Below are positions 4,287 through 44,171 of a DNA stretch of 64,000 nt, piece by piece. The position numbers and the translations under genes were made by a program. Positions within the stretch are counted from its first letter, which is position 1. Every line of letters begins with the position of its first letter. The stretch is from Ramlibacter sp. GTDB taxonomy: Bacteria; Pseudomonadota; Gammaproteobacteria; Burkholderiales; Burkholderiaceae_C. Under the pieces are notes generated by a model. The model saw nothing but the letters and a program-made list of their open reading frames with translations. It had not been told where the DNA came from and did not search any database. The stretch covers positions 20,712 to 84,711 of the forward strand of contig NZ_DASPLW010000040.1 in NCBI RefSeq assembly GCF_035627355.1, read 5' to 3'.

Positions 4287-4335
4287 GCTGAGTATTCCGT
4301 CAGGCGCGCCGGACCTTCCGCGCGCCCCCATGTGC

Positions 4336-4370
4336 GAAGGCGGCACCTCCGGGCAGAGGGTGCCGCCTTC
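4336..4370 (-). promoter_or_regulatory. Intercistronic 12-bp perfect stem-loop after the TRAP binding-protein gene
   Basis: gaaggcggcacc-N11-ggtgccgccttc between the SBP stop (4388) and the dctQ-like start (4286). A second 7-bp GC hairpin lies at about 4303-4326. Confidence 0.5.
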
Positions 4371-4387
4371 CGTTCAAGCAGGCCGCC

Positions 4388-5404
4388 CTACTTGGCTGCC
4401 TTGGCGATCTCGGCGCGGAACTCGGCCAGCACCTTGGCCGCGTCCTTCAGGCCCCTGGCCTCGGCTTCCTTGGCCCACTTCTCCTCCAGCTTGGAGGTAT
4501 GGGATTTGACATCGGCGATGAACTTGGCGTCGGCCTTCGTGAACTGCACGCCGTTGGCCTTCATGTTCTCCAGCGCCTTGTTGTCCACCTTGTCCCAGCC
4601 GCGGCCGAAGATGCGGGCGGCGACCTCGCCGGAGGCGTCGTCGACGGCCTTCTTCTCCTCGGGGCTGAGCTTCTTGTACTTGTCCTCGTTCATCATGAAC
4701 ACGAAGCTGGTGTTGTACAGGCCGCCGGGGAAGGTGGTGGCGTACTTGATCAGCTTGTCGAGCTTGAACGAGTCGACCGACTCGGCCGGGAACAGCGTGC
4801 CGTCCATCACGCCGCCGGACAGCAGCTCGTAGGACTCGGGTGCCGGCTTGAGCGTGACGTTCATGCCCAGCGTCTTGGAGATCTCGTTGACCATGCCGCC
4901 GCCCACGCGCCACTTCAGGCCCTGCAGGTCCTCCAGCTTGGTCACCGGCTTCTTGGTGTTGAGCACCATGCCGGGGCCGTGCGTGAAGTAGGTCAGCACG
5001 TGCACGCCGGCGTGCTCCTTGGCGAACTCGGGGTGCTTGGAGGCGACCCGGTTGAAGGCCACCGACAGCGGCTCGGCGCTGTCGCCCAGGAACGGGAACT
5101 CGGCCATCTGCGTCAGCACGAAGCGCCCCGGGGTGTAGCCGTGCACGGTGAAGGAGACGTCGGCCAGGCCGTTCTTGATGGCATCGATGGTGCCGGGGGG
5201 CGCGGCGACGCCGCGCGGCAGCTGGTTGCACTTGATCTTGCCGGCGGAGTTCTTCGCGACCAGGTCGCACCACTCCTTCTGCGCGAGGGTCAGCGCATGG
5301 GTGGGCGGCACCCAGCTGGACAGGGTGAGCACCGTCTGGGCGGCGGCGGGGGCACTGGCAAATGCGGCGGCCATGGCGGCGGCCGTGAGCGACAGGCGTT
5401 TCAT
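4388..5404 (-). CDS. TRAP transporter substrate-binding protein (DctP family)
   Basis: Start MKRLSLTAAAMAAAFASAPAAAQT (signal peptide). DctP-like body. First gene of a P-Q-M operon. Confidence 0.9.
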   Translation of the reverse strand: MKRLSLTAAAMAAAFASAPAAAQTVLTLSSWVPPTHALTLAQKEWCDLVAKNSAGKIKCNQLPRGVAAPPGTIDAIKNGLADVSFTVHGYTPGRFVLTQMAEFPFLGDSAEPLSVAFNRVASKHPEFAKEHAGVHVLTYFTHGPGMVLNTKKPVTKLEDLQGLKWRVGGGMVNEISKTLGMNVTLKPAPESYELLSGGVMDGTLFPAESVDSFKLDKLIKYATTFPGGLYNTSFVFMMNEDKYKKLSPEEKKAVDDASGEVAARIFGRGWDKVDNKALENMKANGVQFTKADAKFIADVKSHTSKLEEKWAKEAEARGLKDAAKVLAEFRAEIAKAAK

Positions 5405-5679
5405 CTTGCGGAGCTCCTTGGATGGCAGTCGGCGCACTGTAAGGCGACAGTTGACATATGTCGGTCCTGAATTACCCGAACTGCTGCAGAGCAGCGGCGC
5501 GCGAATTGTCGTGACGACGACAGGGATTCGACGCGAGCGATGCGACCGTTGCCGGCCTGCATGGGTCCCTATAATCAAAAGCGAACGACCGTTCTTTTTT
5601 GCCCCGGATCGATGCCGCAGTGCGTCATAGAATTTTGGGCTTTACGTCAACGTCAATTCTTCCCTTTAGGAGCCCCCTG

Positions 5680-6429
5680 ATGAAGGTTCTCGTCCCGGTC
5701 AAGCGGGTGGTGGACTACAACGTGAAAGTCCGTGTCAAGTCGGACAACACGGGTGTGGACATCGCCAATGTGAAGATGAGCATGAACCCGTTCGACGAGA
5801 TCGCGGTGGAGGAGGCGGTGCGCCTGAAGGAAAAGGGCGTGGCCACCGAGGTCATCGCCGTGTCCTGCGGCGTGCAGCAGTGCCAGGAAACCCTGCGCAC
5901 GGCCATGGCGATCGGCGCCGATCGCGCGATCCTGGTGCAGACCGACGAGGAACTGCAGCCGCTGGCGGTGGCCAAGCTGCTGAAGGCGCTGGTCGACAAG
6001 GAGCAGCCCGGGCTGGTGATCCTGGGCAAGCAGGCGATCGACGACGACGCCAACCAGACCGGCCAGATGCTGGCCGCGCTGGCCGACCTGCCGCAGGCGA
6101 CCTTCGCCAGCAAGGTCGAGGTGGCCGACGGCAAGGCCCAGGTCACGCGCGAAGTGGACGGCGGCCTGGAGACGGTGGCCATCACGCTGCCGGCGGTGGT
6201 CACCACCGACCTGCGCCTCAACGAGCCGCGCTACGTGACGCTGCCCAACATCATGAAGGCCAAGAAGAAGCCGCTCAAGACGGTGTCGCCGGCCGACCTG
6301 GGCGTGGACGTCGCGCCGCGCCTGAAGACGCTCAAGGTCATGGAGCCGCCCAAGCGCTCGGCCGGCCAGAAGGTGCCGGACGTGGCGACGCTGGTGGAGA
6401 AGCTGAAGAACGAGGCGAAGGTGATCTGA
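5680..6429 (+). CDS. etfB: Electron transfer flavoprotein subunit beta
   Basis: [20 protein letters not shown]... is a canonical EtfB N-terminus. AGGAG lies 7 nt upstream of the ATG. etfA follows. Confidence 0.9.
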
Positions 6430-12112: not shown

Positions 12113-13258
12113 TCAGGCGCTGAAAAAACCCTTGAGCTTGTCGGCCCAGGATTCCTCGGAGGGCGAGTGCCGGGCGCCGCCCTTCTTGAGCGACTCGTCC
12201 AGTTCCTTGAGCAGCTTGCGCTGGTGCTCGGTGAGCTTGACCGGCGTCTCCACGCTGATGTGGCAGTACAGGTCGCCGGGGTAGCTGGAGCGCACGCCCT
12301 TGATGCCCTTGCCGCGCAGGCGGAACTGCTTGCCGGCCTGGGTGCCCTCGGGGATGTCGATCGCCGCCTTGCCCTGCAGGGTGGGGACCTCGATCTCGCC
12401 GCCCAGCGCGGCGCTGGTGAAGGAGATCGGCACCACGCAGTGCAGGTCGTCGCCGTCGCGCTCGAAGATCGGGTGCTTCTTCAGCCGGATCTCGATGTAC
12501 AGGTCGCCCGGCGGGCCGCCGTTGTGGCCCGGCTCGCCGTTGCCGGCGCTGCGGATGCGCATGCCGTCGTCGATGCCGGCGGGGATCTTCACCTCCAGCG
12601 TCTTCTGCTTCTTGACCTTGCCCTGGCCGTGGCAGGTGGGGCAGGGCTCGGGAATGATCTTGCCGGCGCCGCGGCAGGTCGGGCAGGTCTGCTGCACCGA
12701 GAAGAAGCCCTGGCGCATCTGCACCACGCCGGCCCCGTGGCAGGTGCCGCAGGGCTTGGCCTGGGTGCCCGGCTTGGCGCCGCTGCCGTGGCAGGTGTCG
12801 CAGGGATCCCAGGTCGGGATGCGGATCTGCGCTTCCTTGCCGGCGGCCGCCTCCTCCAGCGTCACCTCCATCGCGTACGACAGGTCGTTGCCGCGGTAGA
12901 CCTGGCGCCCGCCGCGGGCGCCGCCCGCCCGGCCCTGGCCGAAGATGTCGCCGAAGATGTCGCCGAAGGCTTCCGCGAAGCCGCCGAAGCCCTCGGGGCC
13001 GGCGCCGGGCCCGCGCATGTTGGGGTCCACGCCCGCGTGGCCGTACTGGTCGTAGGCCGCGCGCTTGTCGGCATCCGAGAGCATCTCGTACGCCTCCTTG
13101 GCCTCCTTGAACTTGGCTTCCGCCTCCTTGGCCGCGTCCCCCTGGTTGCGGTCGGGGTGGAACTTCATCGCCAGCTTGCGATAAGCCTTCTTGATCTCGT
13201 CTTCCGAGGCGTTCTTCGGGACCCCGAGAACCTCGTAGTAATCACGCTTGGTGGCCAT
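12113..13258 (-). CDS. dnaJ: Molecular chaperone DnaJ
   Basis: [13 protein letters not shown]...HPDRN J-domain, a G/F-rich linker, and four CxxCxGxG zinc motifs. Confidence 0.95.
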
Positions 13259-13341
13259 CGTGTCTTGATCGTTTCTTTCAGCGCGAACGCCGCGTTGGCT
13301 CCTCACCAACGCGGCGCGCGTTCATCGGCTGGGCGCCGCAA

Positions 13342-15291
13342 TCAGCCCTTCTTCACCTCTTTGACCTCGGCGTCGACCACGTTGTCGTCGGCCGGGCCGG
13401 AGGCCGCGGCGCCCGGCTGCGCGTCGCCGGCCTCACCGGCGCCCGCCGCCTGAGCGGCCTGGGCCTGCTGCATGTCGGCGTACATCTTCTCGCCCAGCTT
13501 CTGGCTGGCCGTCATCAGCGCGTTGGTCTTCTCGTCGATCTGCGTCTTGTCCTCGCCCTTGAGGGCTTCCTCGACGTCCTTCAGCGCGGCCTCGATCTTC
13601 TCCTTCTCGCCGGCCTCGAGCTTCTCGCCGTACTCGCCCAGGCTCTTGCGCACGCTGTGCACCAGCGCCTCGCCCTGGTTGCGGGCCTGCACCAGCTCCA
13701 GCTTCTTCTTGTCCTCGGCGGCGTTGAGCTCGGCGTCCTTCACCATCTTCTGGATCTCGTCCTCGGACAGGCCCGAGTTGGCCTTGATGGTGATCTTGTT
13801 CTCCTTGCCCGTGCCCTTGTCCTTGGCGCTGACATGCAGGATGCCGTTGGCGTCGATGTCGAAGGTGACCTCGATCTGCGGCAGGCCGCGCGGTGCCGGC
13901 GGGATGCCCTCCAGGTTGAACTCGCCCAGCAGCTTGTTGCCGCTGGCCATCTCGCGCTCGCCCTGGAACACCTTGATCGTCACGGCCGGCTGGTTGTCGT
14001 CGGCGGTGGAGAACGTCTGGGCGAACTTGGTCGGGATGGTCGTGTTCTTGGCGATCATCTTGGTCATCACGCCACCCAGCGTCTCGATGCCCAGCGACAG
14101 CGGGGTCACGTCCAGCAGCAGCACGTCCTTGCGGTCGCCGCCCAGCACCTGGCCCTGGATGGCGGCACCCACGGCCACCGCCTCGTCGGGGTTGACGTCC
14201 TTGCGCGGCTCGCGGCCGAAGAACTCCTTGACCTTCTCCTGCACCTTGGGCATGCGGGTCTGGCCGCCCACCAGGATCACGTCGTGGATGTCGCTCACGC
14301 TCACGCCGGCGTCCTTGATGGCCGTGCGGCAGGGCGCGATGGTGCGCTCGATCAGCTCGTCGACCAGGCTTTCCAGCTTGGCGCGGGTGAGCTTGATGTT
14401 CAGGTGCTTGGGGCCCGACGCGTCGGCCGTGATGTACGGCAGGTTGATGTCGGTCTGCGCGCTGTTGGACAGCTCGATCTTGGCCTTCTCGGCGGCTTCC
14501 TTCAGGCGCTGCAGCGCCAGCACGTCCTTGGACAGGTCGACGCCCTGTTCCTTCTTGAACTCCGAGATGATGTAGTCGATCACGCGCTGGTCGAAGTCTT
14601 CCCCGCCCAGGAAGGTGTCGCCGTTGGTGGAGAGCACCTCGAACTGCTTCTCGCCGTCGACGTCGGCGATCTCGATGATGGAGATGTCGAAGGTGCCGCC
14701 GCCCAGGTCATAGACGGCGATCTTGCGGTCGCCCTTCTCCTGCTTGTCCAGGCCGAAGGCCAGCGCGGCCGCCGTCGGCTCGTTGATGATGCGCTTGACG
14801 TCCAGGCCCGCGATGCGGCCGGCGTCCTTGGTAGCCTGGCGCTGGGCGTCGTTGAAGTACGCCGGCACCGTGATCACGGCCTCGGTGACCGGCTCGCCCA
14901 GGTAGTCCTCGGCGGTCTTCTTCATCTTGCGCAGGATCTCGGCCGACACCTGCGGCGGGGCCAGCTTCTTGCCGCGCACCTCGACCCAGGCGTCGCCGTT
15001 GTCGGCCTTGACGATCTGGTAGGGCATGAGGTGGATGTCCTTCTGGACTTCCTTCTCCTCGAACTTGCGGCCGATCAGGCGCTTGACGGCGTAGATGGTG
15101 TTCTTGGGGTTGGTGACGGCCTGGCGCTTGGCCGACGCGCCGACGAGGATCTCGCCGTCGTCCTGGTACGCCACGATCGACGGGGTGGTGCGCGCGCCTT
15201 CGCTGTTCTCGATGACCTTGGGGGTATTGCCTTCCATGATGGACACGCACGAGTTCGTGGTGCCCAGGTCGATGCCGATGATCTTGCCCAT
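13342..15291 (-). CDS. dnaK: Molecular chaperone DnaK (Hsp70)
   Basis: [24 protein letters not shown], and full-length Hsp70 architecture (649 aa). Confidence 0.98.
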
Positions 15292-15343
15292 GATGTCTTC
15301 TCTCCTGTCCTGCGGGGCTGCGCCCCTATCCTTGCTGCAGCCC

Positions 15344-15371
15344 AGTTGTGGATAACCGGGCCTGTTTCAAG
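15344..15371 (-). promoter_or_regulatory. Candidate sigma32 (RpoH) promoter of dnaK
   Basis: The minus strand reads CTTGAA-N14-CCACAACT (E. coli consensus CTTGAA-N13-17-CCCCATNT), about 50 nt upstream of the dnaK ATG. Confidence 0.45.
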
Positions 15372-15389
15372 TCGTTCCTCAGGCGGGCC

Positions 15390-15962
15390 TTACTGCGGCG
15401 CCGCCACCATGACCAGCGCCGGCCGCAGCACGCGGTCGGCGATCAGGTAACCCTTCTGCAATACGGAAGCGACGGTGTTCGGCTCCTGGCCCGGGGCCGG
15501 CACCATGGAGATCGCCTGGTGCAGGTGCGGGTCGAACTTGTCGCCCACGGCCGGGTTGACTTCCAGCACCTTGTTGCGCTCCAAAGCCTGCTTGAGCTGG
15601 CGCAGGGTGACCTCGGCGCCTTCGCGGACCTGTTCGACGGTGGCTTCCTTGACGGCCAGGCCGGCCTCCAGGCTGTCGCACACGGGCAGCAGGCTCTCGG
15701 CGAAGCTCTCGATCGCGAACTTGCGGGCCTTGGCCATCTCCTCGTCGGCCCGGCGGCGGGTGTTCTGCACCTCGGCCTGGGCCCGCAGGTACTGCTCGGA
15801 CAGCTCGGCGTTCTTGCTGCGCAGCGTCTCCAGTTCGCCCAGCGAGGCCGCGAGGTCGGCCTCGTTGGCCGCCGAAGCGGCCTCGCGCTCTTCGGGGCTG
15901 ATGTCGGCCGGAGCCGGGGCGCCATCCAGGGTCGGTTCGATCTTGGGGTCGTCGGGGTTCAT
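15390..15962 (-). CDS. grpE: Nucleotide exchange factor GrpE
   Basis: 190 aa. GrpE core ([14 protein letters not shown]...[19 protein letters not shown]). Immediately upstream of dnaK. Confidence 0.95.
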
Positions 15963-16001
15963 CTCTTTTTCGGTCGAATCGGCGGTAAACCAGCGCCGCA
16001 G

Positions 16002-16027
16002 CTTGGGGCAGCGTAGTGGTTTTCAAG
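16002..16027 (-). promoter_or_regulatory. Candidate sigma32 (RpoH) promoter of grpE
   Basis: The minus strand reads CTTGAA-N13-CCCCAAGC, about 35-40 nt upstream of the grpE ATG. Confidence 0.55.
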
Positions 16028-20375: not shown

Positions 20376-20542
20376 GAACAATCCTCCCGGTGGCAGGCGC
20401 CCGGCGGGCGCCTCGTGTCGCGAGCGCGAGTATGCGCGCGGTGGGGCCTGGGGGCAAAGGCATGTCGTTTTGCCTACACGGCCGACCGCGCGCGGAGGCG
20501 CCGCCAGGCACGCAGGGGCCGGCAACGAACAACAATAGGGGC

Positions 20543-23413
20543 ATGCGGATGCTGCGGCGCAAGACAGCCGATTTCGGACCGACCGATTCCACACCGATGC
20601 TGGCCGGCCCGGGGCGCGACCGGCCGCCGCGCATCCTGTGGGGCGTGGCCGCCTTCGCGCTGGTGACGGCCGGCATGCTGGCCATGACGCTGGCCTGGTT
20701 CCGCACCGAGGCGCTGCGCTCCGGCGGGGAGCTGACGCAGGCGCTGGCCCACGTGATCGCCGAACAGACCACGCGCAGCCTGGGTGCGGTCGACGTGCGC
20801 ATGCAGCTGGCCGCCCACGAACTGCGGGAGATGGAGGCGGCCGGCCCGCTGGACGAGGAACGCGTGCGCGAGCGGCTGCGGCATTCGCTGGAGGGCGTCC
20901 CGTTCGTGCGCAACCTGTGGGTGGTCGATCCGAAAGGGACCATCCTGTTCTGGTCGATGGCGGGCCACGCCGATTTCTCGGTGGCCGACCGCGAGTACTT
21001 CCGGGCGCACGTCGACCATCCGCAATCCGGCTTCTACGTCGGCCGGGTCGTGCGCAGCCGCGTGACCCGGGAGGGCATCATGGTGGTTTCGCGTGCGGTG
21101 CGCGGCCCCGACGGCCGGGTGCAACGGGTGATGGCCGCCGCCATCGAGCCGCCCCACATCCAGGCCGAGTGGCGGGAACTCGACCTCGCCACCAACGGCG
21201 TGATCGCCCTGTTCCACACCAGTGGCCAGGCGATGATGCGCAGCCCGCCCATGCCCCAGGCCCTCGGCCTGGACTTCTCCAACCTGCCGCTGTTCACGCA
21301 CTACCTGCCCTCCGGGCCGGCCGGCAGCTTCCGCAACCACGGTGTGCTGGACGGGGTCGAACGGCTCTACGCGTGGCGGGTGCTGCCCGCCTATCCCGAG
21401 CTGGTCGTGCTCGCGGGATCGCCGGTGGCCCAGTTGCTGGCCGACTGGCGACGGTTCGCGTGGCTGACCGGGGGCCTGTGGTCGCTGGCCGTGCTGGCCG
21501 CCACCATCCTGGGGCGGCAGCTCCAGCGGCAGGCGCAGCGCCGCCGCCGCATGGAACGGCGCTTCGGCGAACTCGCCCAGGCCATGCCGCAGATCGTCTT
21601 CATCACGAACGCGGCCGGCACGGTGGAATTCGTCAACGAGCGCTGGTTCGAGGCGACCGGCCGTCCCGTGGCTTCCGTGCTGGGCGCGCCCTGGGAGGAA
21701 CTGGCGCACCCCGAGGACAGCCGCCGGGTCGCGCAGGAGCGGGCGGCCGGGGTGCCGGAGGGCCAGCCCGTGCAGGTCGAGATGCGCCTGCGCTATCGCG
21801 ACGGCAGCGACCGCTGGCAGCTGGTGCGGGCGGTGCCGAACCGCAACGAGCACGGCGAGCTGGTGTCGTGGTACGGGACCGCCACCGACGTGCACGACCT
21901 CAAGGTGGCCCAGGAGCAGCTGCAGCGGCAGGCCGACATCCTGCGCATGACCGCGAACCTGGCCCGCCTCGGCTCGTGGACCTTCGACGTCGCCAGCAGG
22001 ACCCTGAGCTGGTCGGACGAAGCCGCGGCCATCCTGGACTTCCCGCCCGACCGGCGCGCCGGCCTGGACGAACTGATCGCCGGCCTCGACGAGCGCGACC
22101 GGGGTCCGTTCGAAGCAGCCGTGCGCCGCACGCTCGAGGACGGCTTGCCCTTCGACGCCGAATTCCGGATGACGACCCCGCGCGGCCGCCGCGTGTACGT
22201 GCACTCGGTGGGCCGGCCGGTGCGCGACGCCGCCGGCGCGGTGGTGCGGGTTGAAGGGGCCACGCAGGACATCGCCCCCCTGATGGACCTGGTGGAGCAG
22301 GTGCGCGAGCTCAATGCCACGCTGGAGCAACGCATCGAGCAGCGCACGCGCGAGCTGCAGCAGCAGGAGGCGCTGTTCCGCACCCTGGCCAGCGAGGCGC
22401 CGCTGCCGATCTGGACCGTGGATCCGCAAGGCCACCTCACCTTCATCAGCCGCGCCTGGTACGACCTGGTGGGCGGTGCCCCGCCCGAGTGGCTGGGGGA
22501 CGACTGGCAGAAGCTGGTCCATCCGGACGACATGGCCGCGTCGACCCAGGAATGGGCGCGGTGCCGCCGGGAGGGCCGCGCCTTCCGGGGCACGCGGCGC
22601 ATCCGCGCCCGCGACGGGACCTACCACACCACCACCTACCAGGCCAGCCCGGTCCGCGGCGACGATGGCCGGATCGCCTTCTGGGTCGGCGTGGACACCG
22701 ACATCACCGACCTGATGGCGCAGGAGACCGCGCTGCGGCTGGCCAACGAGCAGCTGGAGGCCTACTCCTACTCGGTCTCGCACGACCTGCAGTCGCCGCT
22801 GCAGCGCATAGGCGCTTTCGCGCAGCTGCTGCAGCAGGAACTGGCCGGCCAGGAAGGCACGCGCGCCGGGCACTTCCTGCGGCGCATCCGCGCCAACGTC
22901 GAGGAGATGGTCCAGCTGGTGCAGGGGCTGCTGTCGCTGGCACGGGTGACGCAGGCCGAACTGGTGCGCGGCCGGATCGACCTCAGCAGCCTGGCGACGG
23001 AGATCCTGCAGCGCCTGAAGGCCGACGCGCCGGACCGGCAGGTGCACTGGCAGGTGGAGCCCGGCCTGCACGTGACGGGCGACGTGCGGCTGATGCGCTC
23101 GGTCATGGAGAACCTGCTGGGCAACGCCTGGAAGTTCACCTCCGGCACGCCAGAGGCCCGGATCGTCGTCGGCGGCTGCGTGGCGCGCGGCGAGTTCTTC
23201 GTGCGCGACAACGGCGCCGGCTTCGACATGGCCCATGCCGGCAAGCTGTTCGGCCCCTTCCAGCGGCTGCACCGCCAGGACGAGTTCCCCGGCACCGGGA
23301 TCGGCCTGGCCACGGTGGCCCGCGCCATCGCCCGCCACGGCGGGCGCGTGTGGGGCGAGGGCGAGCCCGGCCGCGGCGCGACCCTGTGGTTCACGATGCC
23401 GGTGCCCGGCTGA
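20543..23413 (+). CDS. Sensor histidine kinase (double-Cache-like periplasmic domain, 3 PAS/PAC, HisKA, HATPase_c)
   Basis: Two TM helices flank a ~270-aa periplasmic domain. Three PAS-like blocks. H-box SHDLQSPLQRI. N/G boxes (LLGNAWKFT, DNGAGFD, GTGIGLA). No receiver domain. Confidence 0.9.
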   Translation: MRMLRRKTADFGPTDSTPMLAGPGRDRPPRILWGVAAFALVTAGMLAMTLAWFRTEALRSGGELTQALAHVIAEQTTRSLGAVDVRMQLAAHELREMEAAGPLDEERVRERLRHSLEGVPFVRNLWVVDPKGTILFWSMAGHADFSVADREYFRAHVDHPQSGFYVGRVVRSRVTREGIMVVSRAVRGPDGRVQRVMAAAIEPPHIQAEWRELDLATNGVIALFHTSGQAMMRSPPMPQALGLDFSNLPLFTHYLPSGPAGSFRNHGVLDGVERLYAWRVLPAYPELVVLAGSPVAQLLADWRRFAWLTGGLWSLAVLAATILGRQLQRQAQRRRRMERRFGELAQAMPQIVFITNAAGTVEFVNERWFEATGRPVASVLGAPWEELAHPEDSRRVAQERAAGVPEGQPVQVEMRLRYRDGSDRWQLVRAVPNRNEHGELVSWYGTATDVHDLKVAQEQLQRQADILRMTANLARLGSWTFDVASRTLSWSDEAAAILDFPPDRRAGLDELIAGLDERDRGPFEAAVRRTLEDGLPFDAEFRMTTPRGRRVYVHSVGRPVRDAAGAVVRVEGATQDIAPLMDLVEQVRELNATLEQRIEQRTRELQQQEALFRTLASEAPLPIWTVDPQGHLTFISRAWYDLVGGAPPEWLGDDWQKLVHPDDMAASTQEWARCRREGRAFRGTRRIRARDGTYHTTTYQASPVRGDDGRIAFWVGVDTDITDLMAQETALRLANEQLEAYSYSVSHDLQSPLQRIGAFAQLLQQELAGQEGTRAGHFLRRIRANVEEMVQLVQGLLSLARVTQAELVRGRIDLSSLATEILQRLKADAPDRQVHWQVEPGLHVTGDVRLMRSVMENLLGNAWKFTSGTPEARIVVGGCVARGEFFVRDNGAGFDMAHAGKLFGPFQRLHRQDEFPGTGIGLATVARAIARHGGRVWGEGEPGRGATLWFTMPVPG

Positions 23414-23473
23414 GCCATTCGGGAACCCGCGCCGCAACCGGGACCCCAATCGTCTTTTCCAGGAGTCCCGCGC

Positions 23474-24451
23474 ATGAACCCGTCCGATACCCAGGCCATC
23501 GTCACCCTCAGCCTGATGGCGGCCTTCGCCGACGGCGGCAAGCACGACCGCGAGCGGGAGGAGGTCCGGCGCATCGCCGACGGGCTGGCGCATGCCGATG
23601 CCGTGCACCTGCCCACGCTGGTGCAGGACGTGCTGATGAAGCGCGTGGACATCGCCCAGGCGGCCGCGGCCCTCGGTTCGCCCGAAGCGCGCCAGCTCGC
23701 CTACGAGATGGCCGTGTGCGTGTGCGACGCCGATGGCGTGCAGTCGGTGCCCGAGCAGCAGTTCCTGTCGCAACTGCGGGCGGCGCTGAAGCTGGACGAG
23801 GCCGGCGCCCAGCGGTTCAGCGACGAAGCGCAGGCCATGGCCGCCGCGCCGCTGCAGGGCCCCATGCCCGACGCCGGCGTGCGCGCGGCCGTGTCGCCGG
23901 TGCAGCCGGTGGGCGGGCGGCCTTCGACGCTGCCGGACGCCGAGCTGGACCAGATGATCCTGAACGCCGCCATCACCAACGGCGCACTGGAACTGCTGCC
24001 CGAATCGCTGTCGACCCTGGCCATCATTCCTCTGCAGATGCGGCTGGTGTACCGCATCGGCCAGTCCTACGGCTACGAGCTGGACCAGGGGCACGTCAAG
24101 GACTTCCTGGCCACCCTCGGCGTGGGCCTGACCTCGCAGTACCTGGAGCAGGCCGGCCGCAAGTTGCTGGGCGGGTTGCTCGGCCGGGTCGGCGGCGGCC
24201 TGCTGGGCGGCGTCGGGCGCCAGGCCGTGAGTTCGGGCATGAGCTTCGTGGCGACCTACGCGCTCGGCCATGTGGCGCGGCGCTACTACGCCGGCGGCCG
24301 CACCCTGTCCTCGCAGATGCTCAAGGAGACCTATGCCGGCATCGCCGGCGAAGCGCAGGGCCTGCAGGCGCGCTACCTGCCGCAGATGCAGCAGCAGGCG
24401 CGCACGCTGGACATGGGCAAGGTCATGGCGATGGTGGGCGGCCGGCGCTGA
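23474..24451 (+). CDS. TerB-like N-terminal domain protein with a DUF697-like C-terminal region
   Basis: N-terminus AIVTLSLMAAFADGGKHDREREEVRRIA is TerB-like. C-terminus (LAIIPLQMRLVYRIGQSYGYELD..., Gly-rich hydrophobic stretch) is assigned from recollection only. Confidence 0.55.
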   Translation: MNPSDTQAIVTLSLMAAFADGGKHDREREEVRRIADGLAHADAVHLPTLVQDVLMKRVDIAQAAAALGSPEARQLAYEMAVCVCDADGVQSVPEQQFLSQLRAALKLDEAGAQRFSDEAQAMAAAPLQGPMPDAGVRAAVSPVQPVGGRPSTLPDAELDQMILNAAITNGALELLPESLSTLAIIPLQMRLVYRIGQSYGYELDQGHVKDFLATLGVGLTSQYLEQAGRKLLGGLLGRVGGGLLGGVGRQAVSSGMSFVATYALGHVARRYYAGGRTLSSQMLKETYAGIAGEAQGLQARYLPQMQQQARTLDMGKVMAMVGGRR

Positions 24452-26597: not shown

Positions 26598-26993
26598 CTA
26601 CTTCTTCCGCCGCCCTCGCGCCGCCTTCTTCGCCTCCGCCGCCCGCGGAACCTGCTCCGCCGCCCGCTCCAGCCACTGCAGCGTCTCGACCTGCGCCATG
26701 AAGCGCCGCAGGTAGTCGGGCGACAGCTCCCCCATCCGCTCCAGCGCGCGCAGCACCAGCGCATGCGAGTTCAGCGGCCCGGCGTTGGCCGGCGTGCGCG
26801 CCACGGCCTGCTGCAGCTGGTCCATGGTGCGATGGCGGTCCCAGGCTTCGCGGAAGCGCCGCGCGCTGGCCAGTTCGTCCGGGTCGGGTGCGTCGGCATC
26901 GCCGCGCCGTGCGGCGCGAAGGCGCCGGATGTACGCGTTCAGTTCCGCCAGCGTGCGCGGCGAATCCGCCGGCCCGGCCGCGGCCTCAGCCAC
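26598..26993 (-). CDS. DUF2894-like protein (fourth gene of the MotAB-like cassette)
   Basis: GTG start overlaps the upstream stop by 8 nt. 131 aa, helical, with a basic tail AAEAKKAARGRRKK. The DUF name is from recollection. Confidence 0.65.
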   Translation of the reverse strand: MAEAAAGPADSPRTLAELNAYIRRLRAARRGDADAPDPDELASARRFREAWDRHRTMDQLQQAVARTPANAGPLNSHALVLRALERMGELSPDYLRRFMAQVETLQWLERAAEQVPRAAEAKKAARGRRKK

Positions 26994-27642
26994 GCGGCGC
27001 CTCCGGCTTGGCCGCCGAGGTGCGCGGCACCGGCGCCATCTCCACCCGCCGGTTCAGTGCGCGTCCCTTCGCCTCGGTGTTCGGCGCCACCGGCTGCTCG
27101 GCGCCGAAGGCGGCGGCGAACACCTGCGAGGAGGGCATGCCGTCCTCGATCAGGGCGCGCGTGACGGTCAGCGCGCGCTGGGCCGACAGCTCCAGGTTGT
27201 CCTCGTAGCGGCGGCTGCCCTGCTGCACCGGCGTGTCGTCGGTGAAGCCGCTGACCATCAGCAGCTCGTTGCGCTCGCCCAGGTACACGCGCAACGGATG
27301 GACCAGGCTCCTGAGCAGCTGCCGCCCCTCGGGCCGCAGCTGGTCGGACCCGAGCGCGAACAGCACGCTGCCGCTGATGCCGATGCGGCCCTCGTTGACG
27401 GTGATGCGGCCGGAGGCCAGCGGCACCGCCAGCGCCTTCTCCAGCGCGATGCGGCGCTGCTCCTCGATGCGGCGCTTCTCGATCTCGGCTTCCAGGCTGG
27501 CTGCCAGGTCCATCTGCCCGACCAGCACGCCGATCAGCACCAGCACGAAGGCGCCCAGCAGGCCCGACATCAGGTCGGCAAACACCGTCCAGGCCGGCGC
27601 GACGTCCGGTGCGGTGGCTTCGTTGTCGTCGACGCCGGTCAT
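26986..27642 (-). CDS. MotB-like protein with an OmpA-type peptidoglycan-binding domain
   Basis: Single TM helix with an Asp (WTVFADLMSGLLGAFVLVLIG). OmpA_C-like motifs (GFTDDTP, NLELSAQRALTV, NRRVEM). ATGA overlap with the upstream gene. Confidence 0.85.
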   Translation of the reverse strand: MTGVDDNEATAPDVAPAWTVFADLMSGLLGAFVLVLIGVLVGQMDLAASLEAEIEKRRIEEQRRIALEKALAVPLASGRITVNEGRIGISGSVLFALGSDQLRPEGRQLLRSLVHPLRVYLGERNELLMVSGFTDDTPVQQGSRRYEDNLELSAQRALTVTRALIEDGMPSSQVFAAAFGAEQPVAPNTEAKGRALNRRVEMAPVPRTSAAKPEAPRG

Positions 27643-29720
27643 TCGGTGCCTATGTCGGCGACTACCGTCGTGGTCCGCGGCTGGCCCTTCAGCTCGCGCA
27701 GGCTGTCGACCATGGATTGCTGCGAGGCGATGCTCAGGTCGATGACCTCGCGCGCCTGCGCCACGTAGTAGGCCAGCTGCTCGTCGCTGCGCTCGGTCGA
27801 CTTGCGCAGCGAGGACTCCACCTGCTGCAGCGTGCCGGTCAACTTGTCGTGGCTGGCCTGGAAGGCTTGCACGCTCTCGCCGAAGGATTCGGCCACGCCG
27901 GCCAGCCGGGCCGCGCCCTCGGCCACCTGCGACCCCATCTCGGCCGCCTGCGCCCCCTGCGCCTCCAGGGCCTGCCCGAAGCGCGATTGCGCCTGCTCCA
28001 GCACCGAGGTCGCGGAGCCGACCAGCGACTCGATGGCGCCGCGCTGATCGCCCGCTGCCTGCTCCAGCGACTGGATCAGCGCGCCCAGCCGCTCCAGCAG
28101 CACGGTGCGCTCCTGCAGCGCCAGGTTGTCGCGCTCGGCCACGCGGCTCATCTCCTCGCGCAGCTGCGAGATCACGCCGGCGGCGGCCTGCGGCACTTCG
28201 GCGGCGGTGTTCAGCAGGCGGGTGAGCGGTGCCTCCAGCGCCGCGCCCAGGGTGGCGAGGTGCCCGGTGACGGCCCCCTGCAGTTCCGACAGCCGCTGCA
28301 CCGCCGCTTCGCCGCGTGCGCTTTCCTCCGCGCGCAGCGTGGACAGGTGCTGGGCCAGCGTGGCCTGCAGCTCGCCCAGGCGCTGCGCGGCCTGCTCGCC
28401 GCGCTGGCTCTCGTCCTGCCGCAGGCCGGCGAGGTGTTGCGCCAGGGTGGCCTGCAGGTCGGCCAGTCGCCCGACGGCCGCTTCACCGCGGCGGCTTTCG
28501 TCCTCGCGCAGCGCGGCCAGTTCGCTGCGCCAGGTCGCCGCCAACTGGTCCATGCGCTCGCCGTGCTCCTGCAGCCAGCGCGCCTCGGCCTCGGCGCGCG
28601 AGCGCACCAGCTCGCCCGACTGCTCCAGCAGCCGCCTGACCTCCTCCAGCGCGAGCTGCGCCTCGCCGCCTGCGCGCTCGGCCACCTGGGTGGCGCGCTG
28701 CTCCAGCGCCGCGGTCCAGGCCTGCAGGCGCTGCTGCTCGGCGGCCGCGAATCGGGTCGACAGGGATTCCGCCTGCGATCGAGCGACCTCGCCCAGGCGC
28801 GCGTGCAGGCCTTGCGCTTCCTGCACCAGCTGCGCCATCGCCGACTGCACGACGGGGCGGATCGCTTCGCCCGTGGCCTGGGTGCTGGCAGCCAGGTTCT
28901 GCTGCAGCGAGGCGGCCACGCTGCGGGCCAGCTCGCCGTAGGCCGCGGTGACCTCGCGCTGCAGTTGCTCCTGCCGTTCCAGCAGCTGCGCATCGAGCTG
29001 CTCGCTGCGCCGTTCGATGCGCTCCAGCAGGGCGTGCAGCGATTCCGCCACCTCGGGCAGCACGCGCGACTGCGCCTGCAGCGCGCGCAGGGATTCCTGC
29101 CGCTGCTGCGCCAGCGAGAAGGGCTGCAGCACGCCGGCGACGGCGGCGTCCAGCCGGCGTGCGGCTTCCAGCCGCTCGCGCCGCGCGATCGCGGACATCA
29201 GCCCCAGCATGGCGGAGGCCGCCACGCCGGCCACCGAGGTGCCGAAGGACAGGCTCAGTCCCCTGATCGGCTCGGCCAGCGCGGCGCGGATGGCCTGCAC
29301 GTCGGTGGAGCCCTGCAGCGCGAACACCGCGCCCTTGAAGGTGACCACCATGCCCAGGAAGGTGCCCAGCATGCCCAGCATGACCAGCAGGCCGACCAGG
29401 TAGGGCGTGAGCGCCGGGCCGGGCAGGGCGCCACGGTGGCCCTCGATGCGCAGCCGCACGGTGTCGCGCAGGGCGGCGGGGACCTGCTGCAGCCAGTCGG
29501 CCAGCGCGGCTGGCGGCGTCGTCAGTCCGTCCAGCGCTGCGCGCAGCGAGCCGGTGGCGACGCGGAACTGGCGCAGCTCGTTGGCGCCGACGACGTAGGC
29601 CGCTGCGATCAGGGCCGTCATGGCCAGCGCCAGCGTGCTGGTGCCGACGAAGCCGGTGGCGACCCAGCCCAGGGCGAGCAGGCCGAGGAGGAAGGCCAGG
29701 AAGAAAAGGCGTTGGCTCAT
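27639..29720 (-). CDS. MotA/ExbB/TolQ-like channel protein with a ~460-aa helical (coiled-coil-like) tail; I recall this repeat type as DUF802
   Basis: 693 aa, four TM helices. Channel signature LVGLLVMLGMLGTFLGMVVTF ... LSLSFGTSVAGVAASAMLGLMSAIA. The remainder is an A/E/Q/R/L-rich helix with 29-aa tandem repeats. Confidence 0.8.
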   Translation of the reverse strand: MSQRLFFLAFLLGLLALGWVATGFVGTSTLALAMTALIAAAYVVGANELRQFRVATGSLRAALDGLTTPPAALADWLQQVPAALRDTVRLRIEGHRGALPGPALTPYLVGLLVMLGMLGTFLGMVVTFKGAVFALQGSTDVQAIRAALAEPIRGLSLSFGTSVAGVAASAMLGLMSAIARRERLEAARRLDAAVAGVLQPFSLAQQRQESLRALQAQSRVLPEVAESLHALLERIERRSEQLDAQLLERQEQLQREVTAAYGELARSVAASLQQNLAASTQATGEAIRPVVQSAMAQLVQEAQGLHARLGEVARSQAESLSTRFAAAEQQRLQAWTAALEQRATQVAERAGGEAQLALEEVRRLLEQSGELVRSRAEAEARWLQEHGERMDQLAATWRSELAALREDESRRGEAAVGRLADLQATLAQHLAGLRQDESQRGEQAAQRLGELQATLAQHLSTLRAEESARGEAAVQRLSELQGAVTGHLATLGAALEAPLTRLLNTAAEVPQAAAGVISQLREEMSRVAERDNLALQERTVLLERLGALIQSLEQAAGDQRGAIESLVGSATSVLEQAQSRFGQALEAQGAQAAEMGSQVAEGAARLAGVAESFGESVQAFQASHDKLTGTLQQVESSLRKSTERSDEQLAYYVAQAREVIDLSIASQQSMVDSLRELKGQPRTTTVVADIGTE
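28251..28511 (-). repeat. Three tandem 87-bp (29-aa) coding repeats inside the MotA-like tail
   Basis: LREDESRRGEAAVGRLADLQATLAQHLAG / LRQDESQRGEQAAQRLGELQATLAQHLST / LRAEESARGEAAVQRLSELQGAVTGHLAT. Confidence 0.7.
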
Positions 29721-30445
29721 GGGGTGTGTTCGTGTTCGTTGCGCAGCGCGTCCAGCAGCCCCGCCACGGGCTCCAGCCGCAGCTCCAGTTCGGCGAGCAG
29801 GGCCTGGCGCCAGTCCTCGCCGAAGGCGTGCAGCCAGCCGCCAGGCCTGGCCCACTGGGCGGGGTCGTCGGGTGTGTCGGCCGCCTGGGCCTTGGCGTGC
29901 GCGTGTCGCAACTGGTGGAAGCGGCGCTCCAGCAGCGCCGCGGCGGTGGGCAGCAGCTTCTGCTCGCGCACGGCGAGCACGTCCTCCAGCGCCGCATCCA
30001 GTTCGGCCAGCGGCCGCAGCCGCGGCGAGCGCCCCGCAACCTTCTGCCGCACGTGGTCGCGCAGGGCCGTGAGCATCTGCTCCATCTGGCGCTGCAGCTC
30101 CAGGTGGCGCTGCCGGAACGGCGCGTAGCCGAAGTCCGGGTCGGACGGCTTCAGGTTGGCCAGCGCCAGCGGGTCCTGCGCGATCGCCTTGGCGAGCACG
30201 CCACGCACCCGCTGCACGTCCTCGTCGAGGGCGGCGATCGCCTGGCTGCGTGCGGCGGGGCCGCGGGCTGCGCTGGCGGGTCGGGGGCGCACCGGTTGCT
30301 GCGCAGACTGCAGCCGGATCGCATCCAGCGGGCCGATCCACAGGCTGGTCCGCTCGGCGAAGTCCATGCCCGACCGGTCCGCCTCCACCGGCGTCCAGGC
30401 GCCGAGCAGGCGGACGAGTCGCGAGGGGCCGAACGTGCTGTGCAA
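29717..30445 (-). CDS. DUF3348-like protein (first gene of the MotAB-like cassette)
   Basis: Proposed TTG start at 30445, with GAGGA 7 nt upstream. The track ORF extends to 30673, but that stretch is Pro/Gly/Arg low complexity. ATGA overlap with the next gene. The DUF name is from recollection. Confidence 0.6.
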   Translation of the reverse strand: MHSTFGPSRLVRLLGAWTPVEADRSGMDFAERTSLWIGPLDAIRLQSAQQPVRPRPASAARGPAARSQAIAALDEDVQRVRGVLAKAIAQDPLALANLKPSDPDFGYAPFRQRHLELQRQMEQMLTALRDHVRQKVAGRSPRLRPLAELDAALEDVLAVREQKLLPTAAALLERRFHQLRHAHAKAQAADTPDDPAQWARPGGWLHAFGEDWRQALLAELELRLEPVAGLLDALRNEHEHTP

Positions 30446-30772
30446 GAAGCGATCCTCTGCACCGGGCAGGTGCGCTGCGGGTCCTTGTGGTTGATGGGGC
30501 GGGCGATGGCCCTTGGCAGGTGGGCCCGGATGGGCCCGGGAGCCGGAGCCCGGCTCGCCCCGCAGGCCGGGGCGTTGCCTGCCCGCGGGGCCCGTATTAG
30601 AAACGATCCGGCTGGGCTGGCCGGCGTCCGCACGCCCGGCGAGGGCACGGCGGCGCCAGCGGGCCGCGGCCATGTTGCGCGCGCCAGCCAGCCCCGTGCA
30701 TATGTCGCGGCCGCTGCAATTGCTCGCAGACAGCGCGGCCGGAATGTGCGTGGGATCCCTGCGTTCCGCGCT

Positions 30773-41790: not shown

Positions 41791-42711
41791 CTACGCGTCT
41801 AGCACTGCATCATGGAAATCGTTCTCGTGAAGGATCACTACCTTCACGCCCTTACGCCTCAGTTCCACCGCTCTTTCAACCTTCCGCCCGTAGCAGGCGA
41901 ATGCCCAGCACGGGTTACCCTCTGCACCGATCACGAGGTAGTCGAGCTTGGCGGTGACGTTACGGATGGGTTCACCTCCAAGTTCGCGCACTGTGAACTC
42001 GAATTCGGATCGCTTGTACTTCGTCGAAACGCCAGTGAAGCAAAAGGTGGAGCCTGGGAAGGAGATCGTTGGCCCGACCGCGCAGAGAGCCCCAATAGTC
42101 TTCTCCGGACCATCAAACACGATTGGCCGCACGATCGTTCGCTCATCGAGCACCGCTAGAAACTCTGTAAAGAAGTACTGGAGCATCTTGTGCTCCGTCT
42201 CATCGATGCGACCGTCACGTAGCACCTTAGTCGTGAGAGCCTCAATCTCATCGTACGGCCAGCATGTCTTCAGGTGCTCGTGTTCGGAAAGCCAGTCTGA
42301 GAGTCCACGCAGTTCCTCGACAGCTATCTGACCGTCCGCGGCGATGCCACCGACCAGCGCGTGTAATCGTTGCAGATCTGCCGTGATCATGCTGAAGAAC
42401 TCAGTACTTCTGAGCCGGTTACACAACCAGGTCATGTCCTCCCGCTCCTCGAGCGTCAAGACTCCGTCACCCAAAGCGGCCGACAAGGGTGGAATCAACT
42501 CACTATAGGGATGCCGGTTAGCGACGTCCTGATGGTCGGAAATCCACGTCCGCAAGATCGCCATCTCTCCGCTCGTCACCTTGCCATCTATAGCGATTCC
42601 TTCGAGAAGCCCAAGCAAGGAGTTCACCGACTTCTCAAATCTGCTCTTGCCGGTGAAGTGGAAATACGGTGCGAGGTCTGGATGCATTGCGCCAAATCGA
42701 TGAAGCGCCAT
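41791..42711 (-). CDS. TerB-like-repeat plus C-terminal BRCT domain protein (compositionally foreign singleton)
   Basis: ATG at 42711. Two clear copies of LxGIAxDGx[VI]xxxExxxLxxW[IL]S[DE]H. C-terminal BRCT-like block (FCFTGVSTKYKRSEFEFTVRELGGEPIRNVTAKLDYLVIG...VKVVILHENDF). Local GC is about 50-55%, against about 70% in the flanks. Confidence 0.7.
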   Translation of the reverse strand: MALHRFGAMHPDLAPYFHFTGKSRFEKSVNSLLGLLEGIAIDGKVTSGEMAILRTWISDHQDVANRHPYSELIPPLSAALGDGVLTLEEREDMTWLCNRLRSTEFFSMITADLQRLHALVGGIAADGQIAVEELRGLSDWLSEHEHLKTCWPYDEIEALTTKVLRDGRIDETEHKMLQYFFTEFLAVLDERTIVRPIVFDGPEKTIGALCAVGPTISFPGSTFCFTGVSTKYKRSEFEFTVRELGGEPIRNVTAKLDYLVIGAEGNPCWAFACYGRKVERAVELRRKGVKVVILHENDFHDAVLDA

Positions 42712-42851
42712 TGAGCGCGGCTTCCGCAATGTAGTAGCCCCGGAAAGGGTTGGCAATTACCCGATTACCCTCGCTAGTCAGAAGTCGCCCACTGTTAGAC
42801 TTCCACCCATGCAACCCCGCACGTCCATCCTGGTCATCATTCGAATTACCC

Positions 42852-42885
42852 GCTGACCGGGAACGTGCGCGTCGTCCCGGTCAGC
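42852..42885. repeat. 11-bp perfect inverted repeat at the right edge of the low-GC islet
   Basis: gctgaccggga-N12-tcccggtcagc. A direct 9-mer AATTACCCG occurs at about 42754 and about 42843. Confidence 0.4.
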
Positions 42886-42989
42886 CGGGTCGACGCCTGG
42901 AGCAGCCTCTGCGCTCCCCCTTCGATCCACGCGCATCCCATTGCCGGCCCAGCTTGGCCGGTTGTCGCCGATGACCTGGATCGAAGTGA

Positions 42990-43283
42990 ATGAACACCCT
43001 TGACCTCACCCGAACAGCGACCCGCCTGGAGCAGGTCTACCTGATCGAACGCGATGCCGGCCTCTTGTGCCGCATCCTCGGCCTCTACGCAGCGCGCGGT
43101 GTCGACGTGCTCGGCGTGGACTACGCCTACGCGGCGCAAGACGTCATGAAGCTGCAGGTGTCCGTGGCCCGCCGCCTGGCCGAGACCGAGGAAGTGGTGC
43201 GCGTGCTGGTCGACAAGGCTTCGACACTCATAGGGGTGCTGGCTGCGTCCGAGCAGGTTTCGGTGGAGCAGAGGGCGGCATAG
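42990..43283 (+). CDS. Small ACT-domain-like protein (resembles acetolactate synthase small-subunit fold)
   Basis: 97 aa: LIERDAGLLCRILGLYAARGVDVLGVDYA...LQVSV. Pattern match only. Confidence 0.45.
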   Translation: MNTLDLTRTATRLEQVYLIERDAGLLCRILGLYAARGVDVLGVDYAYAAQDVMKLQVSVARRLAETEEVVRVLVDKASTLIGVLAASEQVSVEQRAA

Positions 43284-43289
43284 GCGAAG

Positions 43290-43312
43290 CGGCCGACATG
43301 CAACGGCCGTTT
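43290..43312 (+). terminator. Hairpin plus short T-run after the ACT-like gene
   Basis: cggccg-acatgcaa-cggccg-ttt. Confidence 0.35.
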
Positions 43313-43334
43313 GCCTCATCTCCCGCACGGCCCG

Positions 43335-44171
43335 CTACGCGACGACGTAGCCCAACCGCGCCGATACCTGCTCCGCGCACCGGCGCAGGGCCGTGGCGAC
43401 ACGGCCGTCCCAGGCACTGTCGAAGCTCGCTGAAGGGCCCATGGCCGTGATGCCGAGCACCAGCGTGCCGGTCGAATCGAACACGGGGGCACAGAACGCA
43501 TCGATGCCGGCAATGGGCTGGCCGATGGTGCGCGAGAGGCGGTGCCGGCGCGTTTCCTCCACCAGCGCTTCGAACTGCCTGCGCGACTGCGGCTCGGCGT
43601 GCGGCCCCTGCAGCAGCAGGTCGTGCTCGCGCGCGAACGCGATCACCTTGGGGGGCATGTAGGCTGCGAACAGCCGCCCGGTGGCGGTGTTGCTCAGCGC
43701 CATCACGGATCCGGCGCGCAGGTTCACGTGCATCGGCTGCACCGGTTCGTCCAGCCGCACGATGGTCGGCCCGAAGGTGCCCCATACCGCCAGCGCGATG
43801 CTCTGGCCGGTCTCCTCGGCGAGCTGTTCGACCAGCGGCGCGGCCGCCTTCACGGGATCCAGCCGCTGCAGCTTGGATAGCCCGATCTGCAGCGCGAGCG
43901 GCCCCAGTTCGTAGCGGCCGGCGGCGTCCTGCACGACGAAGCCCACCTTCAGGAAGCTCACGAGGTAGGGGTGGGCCTTGCCGGCCGCGATACCCGCCGC
44001 CCCCGCCAGCTCGCGCAAGTGCATGGGGGCCACGTGCCCGGCGAGCACACGCAGCAGCAGGCTGCCCGTTTCCACCGACTGGATGCCCCGCCGGGGCTTG
44101 TCCCTGTTGCGTTCTTGCTTGCCGGCAGCCGGGGGGTCGTCGCGGGTTATCACTGACTTCATCAGATGCAT
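43335..44171 (-). CDS. IclR family transcriptional regulator
   Basis: N-terminal wHTH (GIQSVETGSLLLRVLAG...MHLRELAGAAGIAAGKAHPYLVSF) and an IclR effector domain. Alternative start at 44162. Confidence 0.9.
   Translation of the reverse strand: MHLMKSVITRDDPPAAGKQERNRDKPRRGIQSVETGSLLLRVLAGHVAPMHLRELAGAAGIAAGKAHPYLVSFLKVGFVVQDAAGRYELGPLALQIGLSKLQRLDPVKAAAPLVEQLAEETGQSIALAVWGTFGPTIVRLDEPVQPMHVNLRAGSVMALSNTATGRLFAAYMPPKVIAFAREHDLLLQGPHAEPQSRRQFEALVEETRRHRLSRTIGQPIAGIDAFCAPVFDSTGTLVLGITAMGPSASFDSAWDGRVATALRRCAEQVSARLGYVVA

Follow-up and report, generated by a model that had tools for sequence, protein, structure and literature searches.

The definition of Zorya type III, a zorAB gene pair flanked by genes encoding a DUF3348 and a DUF2894 protein, goes back to Payne et al. 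(2021, PMC8565338), who report 6,401 instances. The tested representative of this type, from Stenotrophomonas nitritireducens DSM 12575, was cloned into E. coli BL21-AI, where plaquing by one or more of five phages was significantly lower and where the culture did not collapse with phage PVP-SE1 at a multiplicity of infection (MOI) below 0.1. The same authors proposed that the two small proteins of the system are regulators of ZorAB (PMC8565338). Type III genes are also transcriptionally induced upon exposure to phage in Stenotrophomonas maltophilia and Burkholderia cenocepacia. In the type I system, as described for E. coli NCTC9026 (ZorABCD, PMC11946911), function depends on residue D26 of ZorB, on peptidoglycan binding, on the full ZorA tail and on the tip of this tail, and the tail recruits ZorC and ZorD upon infection. 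Type III is the only Zorya type that lacks a structure, and no study of its structure or mechanism was found in the literature searched. Here we describe a 64,000-nucleotide stretch of DNA (the window; contig NZ_DASPLW010000040.1, positions 20,712 to 84,711), the minus strand of which carries, at positions 26598-30445, what is very probably a complete and intact chromosomal anti-phage operon of Zorya type III in a Ramlibacter species.

The operon is made up of four intact, overlapping and translationally coupled genes, zorG-zorA-zorB-zorF, whose names here follow PADLOC-DB:

zorG (DUF3348 gene), 29717-30445, minus strand: 242 amino acids (aa), TTG start
zorA (type III), 27639-29720, minus strand: 693 aa, ATG start
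zorB (type III), 26986-27642, minus strand: 218 aa, ATG start
zorF (DUF2894 gene), 26598-26993, minus strand: 131 aa, GTG start

The nomenclature of the two accessory proteins is not uniform. In passages of the published texts (PMC8565338, PMC11890865, PMC11946911) the DUF3348 protein is called ZorF and the DUF2894 protein ZorG, which is the opposite of PADLOC-DB. The canonical gene order is given as zorGABF in one place and as zorFABG in another place of the same paper (Hu et al. 2024, PMC11946911), and a passage in Payne et al. 2021 refers to 'pairs of zorBC genes' where zorAB is apparently meant (PMC8565338).

In a scan of PADLOC-DB, each of the four products matches a type III model. The 693-aa protein matches the ZorA3 model PDLC00648 with an E-value of 2.4e-226, its residues 1-680 aligning to positions 1-684 of the 692 in the model, and three further ZorA3 models with E-values between 1e-168 and 1e-208. 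The 218-aa protein matches the ZorB3 model PDLC00651 (4.6e-103, model positions 4-211 of 215), the 242-aa protein matches ZorG3 (DUF3348, 7.1e-62) and the 131-aa protein matches ZorF3 (DUF2894, 1.5e-39). Type I and II models score far more weakly (ZorA1 7e-14, ZorA2 1.6e-8, ZorB1 1.1e-18, ZorB2 1.3e-7). The order along the strand (DUF3348, ZorA, ZorB, DUF2894) is the canonical zorGABF, in which the DUF3348 gene adjoins zorA and the DUF2894 gene adjoins zorB, as in the PADLOC definition of type III. The same scan finds no ZorC, ZorD or ZorE, and the accessory proteins match only ZorG3 and ZorF3.

The Pfam and NCBIfam collections give a compatible picture for three of the proteins. DUF3348 (PF11828) is found in ZorG with an E-value of 8.6e-60 (202.9 bits, cut-off 25), which bears out the family that the original prediction, made by a model from the DNA letters, had named for this protein. 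DUF2894 (PF11445) is found in ZorF with an E-value of 2.1e-33 (116.9 bits, cut-off 25). Here the predicted family was right, but the match is not to the full profile, as it covers only positions 67-184 of 185 in this short form of the protein. OmpA (PF00691) matches residues 94-198 of ZorB with an E-value of 1.6e-17 and over all 98 profile positions (1-98), and NCBIfam PRK09040 matches the same protein at 8.9e-102 (339 bits against a cut-off of 194). The NCBIfam model ZorA_2 matches ZorA at 1.3e-10, under its cut-off.

At the G+C content of the window (~70%), spurious open reading frames (ORFs) are to be expected in plenty on either strand. The four minus-strand ORFs are genuine despite this and are correctly delineated. 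They are present at the coordinates predicted, and the junction sequences are exactly those described earlier, with 4-nt ATGA overlaps between zorG and zorA (29717-29720) and between zorA and zorB (27639-27642), and an 8-nt overlap, GTGGCTGA, between zorB and zorF (26986-26993). The two non-ATG starts are preceded by Shine-Dalgarno-like sequences (AGAGGA before the TTG of zorG and GGAGG before the GTG of zorF), and the N-terminal residues of ZorG that lie ahead of the first internal ATG are kept in homologues. Public data contain a 242-aa protein that is 100% identical to ZorG, and a protein 100% identical to ZorF is annotated in Ramlibacter sp. The G+C content at third codon positions (GC3) is 0.90-0.96 in the four genes, the same as in the adjoining genes.

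The four genes travel together. In 80 related loci, which come from one scan of species-representative genomes and belong mostly to Comamonadaceae and other Burkholderiales, tblastn searches with the window proteins found ZorA in 80, ZorB in 79, ZorG in 78 and ZorF in 76. All four loci that lack ZorF are cut by a contig end, as are two of those that lack ZorG or ZorB. The order G-A-B-F is constant in every locus, and the genes overlap at most junctions (G/A in 48 of 73 loci, A/B in 64 of 73 and B/F in 64 of 75). When the 789 flanking ORFs of these loci were clustered, the commonest neighbour family occurred in 11 of the 80 loci, at scattered positions, and no conserved fifth gene or hidden nuclease partner emerged. 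Thus, the conserved unit consists of exactly four genes, and the co-conservation anticipated for them is present across the 80 loci. One of the loci, in a metagenome-assembled genome labelled Pseudotabrizicola sp. (NZ_JAUSNR010000006.1), carries a complete zorGABF whose ZorA is 46% identical to the one described here. The presence of this alphaproteobacterial genus among betaproteobacterial matches reflects either horizontal transfer or a binning error.

ZorB has the features of a stator B subunit, namely a single N-terminal transmembrane (TM) helix with a conserved acidic residue and an OmpA-like domain:

ZorB Asp23 codon, 27574-27576, minus strand: presumed ion-binding residue
ZorB OmpA-like domain, 27049-27363, minus strand: residues 94-198, Pfam PF00691

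The only hydrophobic segment of the protein (residues 17-52) is followed by the periplasmic, OmpA-like peptidoglycan-binding domain. All 79 sequences compared have D23 (conservation 1.00), which lies in the motif W18-x-V-F-x-D23-L-M, where W18, F21, L24 and M25 are also invariant. A periplasmic linker helix (E53...L75) is conserved in the same set. From its position we infer that D23 is equivalent to D26 of E. coli ZorB (EcZorB), the D26N mutant of which is non-functional (PMC11946911). The invariant residues of the OmpA-like domain include G132-F-T-D135, D148-N-x-x-L-S-A-Q-R-A157 and N197-R-R-V-E201. A phmmer search of PDB sequences matches ZorB to the structures of the C-terminal domains of MotB and PomB (1e-13 to 1e-10), and also to OmpA domains. 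The 218-aa protein is MotB-like in the sense of the original prediction, with the TM aspartate, the OmpA-type domain and the motifs quoted for it all in place.

ZorA consists of a membrane head of ~180 aa and, after it, a presumably helical tail of ~490 aa in the cytoplasm:

ZorA head, 29181-29720, minus strand: residues 1-180, hydrophobic segments; channel helices LPGPALTPYLVGLLVMLGMLGTFLGMVVTFKG and GLSLSFGTSVAGVAASAMLGL, both near-invariant
Tandem repeat in zorA, 28277-28533, minus strand: 87 bp, 2.9 copies, Tandem Repeats Finder score 266
ZorA tail-tip motif RSDEQLAYYVAQAREVIDLSI, 27729-27800, minus strand: residues 641-664, candidate docking or signalling site

Hydropathy analysis delineates three hydrophobic segments, of which the first (residues 2-47) could accommodate two helices; the others are at 103-135 and 161-179. 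These segments, and flanking residues that follow the positive-inside rule, suggest a topology with the N-terminus inside, four helices and a cytoplasmic tail. The peptide motifs that the original prediction quoted for the channel are present in the protein. The four TM helices proposed earlier are thus plausible from the segments and the distribution of basic residues. Conservation of residues 101-180 is 0.89-0.96 among 80 homologues, and the profile of the head matches the solved type I ZorA of Shewanella (8vvn_C, 6.5e-4) across the last two TM helices. In a phmmer search of the full database, the head retrieves 892 representative clusters, all of the ZorA3-like family, and does not reach generic MotA/ExbB proteins. 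The matches listed, all long-tailed, are 204-1122 aa long, the shortest being probably fragments. DUF802, which had been suggested for the 693-aa protein, finds no Pfam match in it even at E <= 10 with head and tail searched separately; ZorA homologues of Ralstonia and Aquabacterium are annotated as DUF802 by NCBI.

Ala, Leu, Gln, Glu and Arg abound in the ZorA tail, which is net acidic (70 Asp+Glu versus 50 Lys+Arg). Its hydrophobic residues recur every 3.6 residues, which is consistent with a near-straight, right-handed bundle such as that described for the tail of E. coli ZorA (EcZorA, PMC11946911). Prolines are few (residues 200, 222, 289, 498, 510 and 681). Four of the six, P222, P289, P498 and P510 (window positions ~28191-29057), are invariant in the 80 homologues, so that the 'uninterrupted' helix of the original prediction is not established; judging from the sequence, these prolines could kink the tail or make it fold back. 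P498 and P510 lie within a conserved block of ZorA, residues 461-540; if the tail does fold back at these two prolines, its length would drop from ~70 nm to ~45 nm.

The middle part of the tail is variable. The 87-bp tandem repeat encodes a 29-aa repeat, also visible in the protein sequence, at residues ~396-482. Conservation of residues 401-460 is 0.02-0.07, this region is gapped in most of the homologues, and the 29-aa repeat is absent from most of them. ZorA measures 579-810 aa in the related loci, and the longest of the family representatives listed has 1122 aa. The repeat and this range of lengths indicate that the length of the tail evolves by gain and loss of repeats.

The tip of the tail is as conserved as the channel helices. 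Mean conservation of residues 641-660 is 0.95, and R644-I664 is almost wholly invariant in the 80 homologues. By analogy with the requirement for the tip in type I (PMC11946911), this motif is a candidate docking or signalling site. No description of it was found in the Zorya papers searched by keyword.

The two accessory proteins are unrelated helical proteins. The AlphaFold2 model of ZorG is an all-helical bundle of high confidence, with an average predicted local distance difference test score (pLDDT) of 88.3 and a predicted template modelling score (pTM) of 0.83. ZorG has no hydrophobic segment and is soluble. The model of ZorF consists of four helices and is of moderate confidence (pLDDT 67.8). 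Foldseek finds no structural neighbour of ZorG with E < 0.1 in the PDB or BFVD and none of ZorF in the PDB; the best matches of the two proteins (E 0.13-5, TM-score <= 0.33) are generic helical bundles and were treated as no match. Phmmer searches of PDB sequences return nothing credible for ZorA, ZorG or ZorF, and hhalign detects no relation between the ZorG and ZorF families.

ZorF carries the invariant motif P68-A-N-A-G-P-L-N-S-H77 and a conserved Lys/Arg-rich C-terminus. In the window it is present in a short form, without the N-terminal third (~66 residues) of the DUF2894 profile. Short forms (~115-156 aa) occur in 18 of 75 loci, including those of Ramlibacter and Hydrogenophaga, and long forms (180-279 aa) in the remaining 57; genes for both remain coupled to zorB. 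The long forms contain an extra conserved N-terminal segment (…DPARFRYLEALARR…QPEAVRRLL…).

Compared with the type III system of S. nitritireducens, the Ramlibacter operon has the same four families in the same order, on one strand and with overlapping genes, and its host belongs to the group in which type III is concentrated (Pseudomonadota, Burkholderiales). It differs in the short ZorF of 131 aa, which lacks the ~66-residue N-terminal segment of most members, and in the lineage-specific 29-aa triple repeat in the ZorA tail. With type I (E. coli NCTC9026, PMC11946911; Shewanella 8vvn) it shares a ZorA that is composed of a membrane head and a cytoplasmic tail, presumably helical here, of several hundred residues, and a ZorB with a TM aspartate and a peptidoglycan-binding domain; there is also profile similarity to ZorA1 (7e-14), ZorB1 (1.1e-18) and 8vvn_C (6.5e-4). 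The tail tip, functionally essential in type I, is invariant in the type III family analysed here. Unlike type I, however, the operon has neither ZorC nor ZorD, the helicase/nuclease effector, but two unrelated small helical proteins instead, and one of the accessory genes stands upstream of zorA.

The type II system ZorABE (Mariano et al. 2025, PMC11890865) likewise has the ZorAB core in common with the operon (ZorA2 1.6e-8, ZorB2 1.3e-7), whereas its HNH nickase ZorE has no counterpart here. Tails of type II have been reported to be shorter than those of type I; the tail described here is long. As in MotAB/PomAB, ExbBD and TolQR, the B subunit combines one TM helix carrying a conserved aspartate with a C-terminal OmpA-like domain. 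Hydrophobic helices and Gly/Thr/Ser-rich channel motifs are seen in the A subunit, which in contrast to these motors gives no match to Pfam MotA_ExbB and whose 490-residue tail has no counterpart among them. The overall architecture that had been predicted, with a stator-type motor of the ZorA/ZorB kind, a very long ZorA tail and two small soluble partners, was right. The absence of a helicase, nuclease or HNH protein from the cassette also holds.

The closest or identical proteins are from Ramlibacter (Comamonadaceae, Burkholderiales). The operon is separated from the preceding gene, which encodes a glutathione S-transferase (GST), by a gap:

Intergenic region upstream of zorG, 30446-30772, minus strand: 327-bp gap, presumed operon promoter

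Judging from the gap itself, the promoter of the operon presumably lies here. A scan of the region for the sigma-70 promoter consensus found none, and a terminator-like hairpin of the GST gene is located within the gap at 30608-30624. On the higher-coordinate side, GST is accompanied by genes for a pseudouridine synthase, VWA/BatA proteins, hydrolases, a protein with a sigma-70 region 4 domain, a methyltransferase and IclR. The lower-coordinate side contains genes for electron transfer flavoprotein (ETF), nitronate monooxygenase, a radical SAM protein, dnaJ-dnaK-grpE, FKBP, SRAP and MatE proteins, and, in the remaining part, a PAS/Cache histidine kinase, a TerB-like protein, NIPSNAP, glyoxalase and a thiamine-binding protein. 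The kinase and the TerB-like protein are encoded side by side at 20390-24451, the former being a 1007-aa dCache/PAS histidine kinase and the latter 325 aa long with a TerB/DUF533-like domain at its N-terminus. This pair is kept in the two closest Ramlibacter loci (L003 and L071), with 91% identity of the TerB-like protein.

A scan of the window found no Rfam families, and ten neighbouring proteins without a clear Pfam identity gave no PADLOC match. The system stands alone, outside any defence island. Pfam analysis of ~30 neighbouring ORFs (6-46 kb) found no flagellar, Tol-Pal or TonB genes (tolA, tolB, pal, tonB), in agreement with the original prediction. A Tol, Exb, Agl or flagellar stator was rejected as an identity of the cassette, since partner genes are missing and the fit to the Zorya-specific models is much better. 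The native composition likewise led us to reject a recent horizontal acquisition. Three segments of the window are lower in G+C than the average of ~0.70 (4001-6000, 0.647; 42001-44000, 0.634; 60001-62000, 0.616) and could be foreign DNA. Neither Pfam nor PADLOC matches the ORF at 41791-42756.

Only the closest Ramlibacter relatives among the 80 loci share the flanking genes of the window. The cassette itself is found in many Ramlibacter species, where part of the neighbours (pseudouridine synthase, glyoxalase, histidine kinase, thiamine-binding protein) is kept. In a plasmid database, all 166 matches are on megaplasmids or chromids of 0.37-3.2 Mb. The impression from the available collections is that of a stably inherited, core-like cassette. 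In one R. solanacearum megaplasmid (CP052125.1, 1739077-1753086) the cassette is annotated as DUF3348, DUF802, OmpA and DUF2894 and lies near a type III effector gene.

Several observations weigh against the assignment of this locus to anti-phage defence. The defence phenotype was measured in one distant family member that was over-expressed in a heterologous host, which is modest evidence. The surroundings of the operon are housekeeping genes; dnaJ, dnaK and grpE (12113-16022) are ~11 kb away, which makes this a core chromosomal setting. No integrase, transposase, tRNA or other defence gene is found near the cassette, its codon composition is native, and the phage genome collection contains no ZorA homologue. 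In the Ralstonia solanacearum complex, the cassette occupies a fixed site on 134 megaplasmid records, in 98 of which the whole 14 kb is syntenic, and a defence system would not usually behave in so core-like a manner. At the level of the proteins, PADLOC, phmmer and Foldseek detect no similarity of ZorG and ZorF to ZorC, ZorD, ZorE or any enzyme. The MotA/ExbB/TolQ channel domain claimed for the 693-aa protein is not recovered by Pfam MotA_ExbB (PF01618), either with whole ZorA at E <= 0.01 or with the head alone at E <= 10, so that the MotA-like nature of the protein comes through ZorA-specific profiles only. As the NCBIfam ZorA scores are also under their cut-off, the 5:2 rotary mechanism rests on distant profile similarity.

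Many of these points would suit a system that is Zorya type III by sequence but has a primarily physiological role, as a conserved envelope ion motor for stress sensing or cell-wall surveillance, the effect on phages being secondary. The partly conserved neighbourhood in many Ramlibacter species, the Ralstonia synteny, the confinement of the plasmid-database matches to large replicons together with the lack of phage matches, the GC3 shared with the neighbours, and a housekeeping environment without mobile-element or defence genes all speak for such a role, as do the very strong purifying selection on ZorB and the ZorA head and the lack of a nuclease-type effector. However, anti-phage protection has been directly measured for a type III system and type III genes are induced by phage in two species, whereas no non-defence phenotype of type III is reported in the literature searched. 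Furthermore, the flanks differ between genera, and both the ZorA tail's length and the form of ZorF vary, as expected under diversifying pressure. We regard a mainly physiological function as improbable, and a complete type III anti-phage operon as by far the most probable reading of the locus.

Two other explanations fare worse. The original prediction saw in the cassette a stator-type motor of no catalogued Zorya type and without an experimentally assigned function. It is true that helicase, nuclease and HNH partners are missing and that the NCBIfam ZorA models, which were built for types I and II, score under cut-off, and for the latter reason the public NCBI annotation contains DUF or OmpA names only. 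But type III models match all four proteins over their full length (1e-39 to 1e-226), the type and the gene order have been published (the type in 2021, PMC8565338), and so has an anti-phage effect in E. coli for one family member (PMC8565338). The cassette thus belongs to a Zorya subtype that is already characterised in both classification and phenotype, and the view that it is new is refuted and very hard to maintain. What is found here is an ordinary member of a catalogued, phenotypically tested system type. That the operon is a decaying or inactive remnant could be read from its ZorF, which is 131 aa long compared to ~180-279 aa in 57 of 75 loci and aligns to the Pfam profile at positions 67-184 only. 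Yet short forms are found in 18 of 75 loci, spread over several genera and without exception coupled to zorB, all four ORFs are intact, every family-invariant residue is kept, and the GC3 of 0.90-0.96 indicates maintained coding. A pseudogenised remnant was rejected on account of the intact ORFs and the retained invariant residues, and its probability is close to nil.

If the type III operon works as its relatives do, the following sequence of events can be proposed. The solved ZorAB complexes of types I and II suggest, by homology, a 5:2 motor of five ZorA and two ZorB subunits in the inner membrane. Phage entry would perturb the envelope, upon which the OmpA-like domain of ZorB would anchor to peptidoglycan. 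By the same analogy, anchoring would open an ion path through Asp23, and the flow of ions would rotate the ZorA pentamer together with its ~490-residue cytoplasmic tail. The invariant tail tip (residues 641-664) might then pass the signal to ZorG and/or ZorF, a step that has less support than those of the motor. As neither protein has a recognisable catalytic fold, they are more likely to be adaptors or regulators than nucleases. They might recruit host factors, bind DNA or the membrane via the basic tail of ZorF, or gate the motor.

Type III may even work without a dedicated nuclease, with ZorG and ZorF, as helical proteins of a new and non-enzymatic kind, reading the rotation of the tail at its tip, or it may be mainly an envelope-surveillance motor; we offer this pair of ideas as speculation that is rather unlikely to prove correct. 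In the former case, infection could be stopped by recruited housekeeping nucleases, by physical trapping of incoming DNA, or by the motor acting as a lethal ion leak. In the latter, the system would be a vertically inherited motor of Burkholderiales and Xanthomonadales that owes its 'defence' label to a single heterologous assay. The published protection at low MOI only fits an abortive and a weak direct mechanism alike.

For the locus itself the discovery value is small, as PADLOC would label it automatically and the type has been published since 2021. The cassette behaves as a stably inherited chromosomal locus and not as a mobile defence island. The remaining interest lies in the effector mechanism of the family, for which the tail tip is a concrete site to mutate and ZorG and ZorF are leads. 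ZorG, with its confident model of a helical bundle for which no structural neighbour was found, is among the features that provide starting hypotheses for how a rotary motor may arrest phage without a nuclease.

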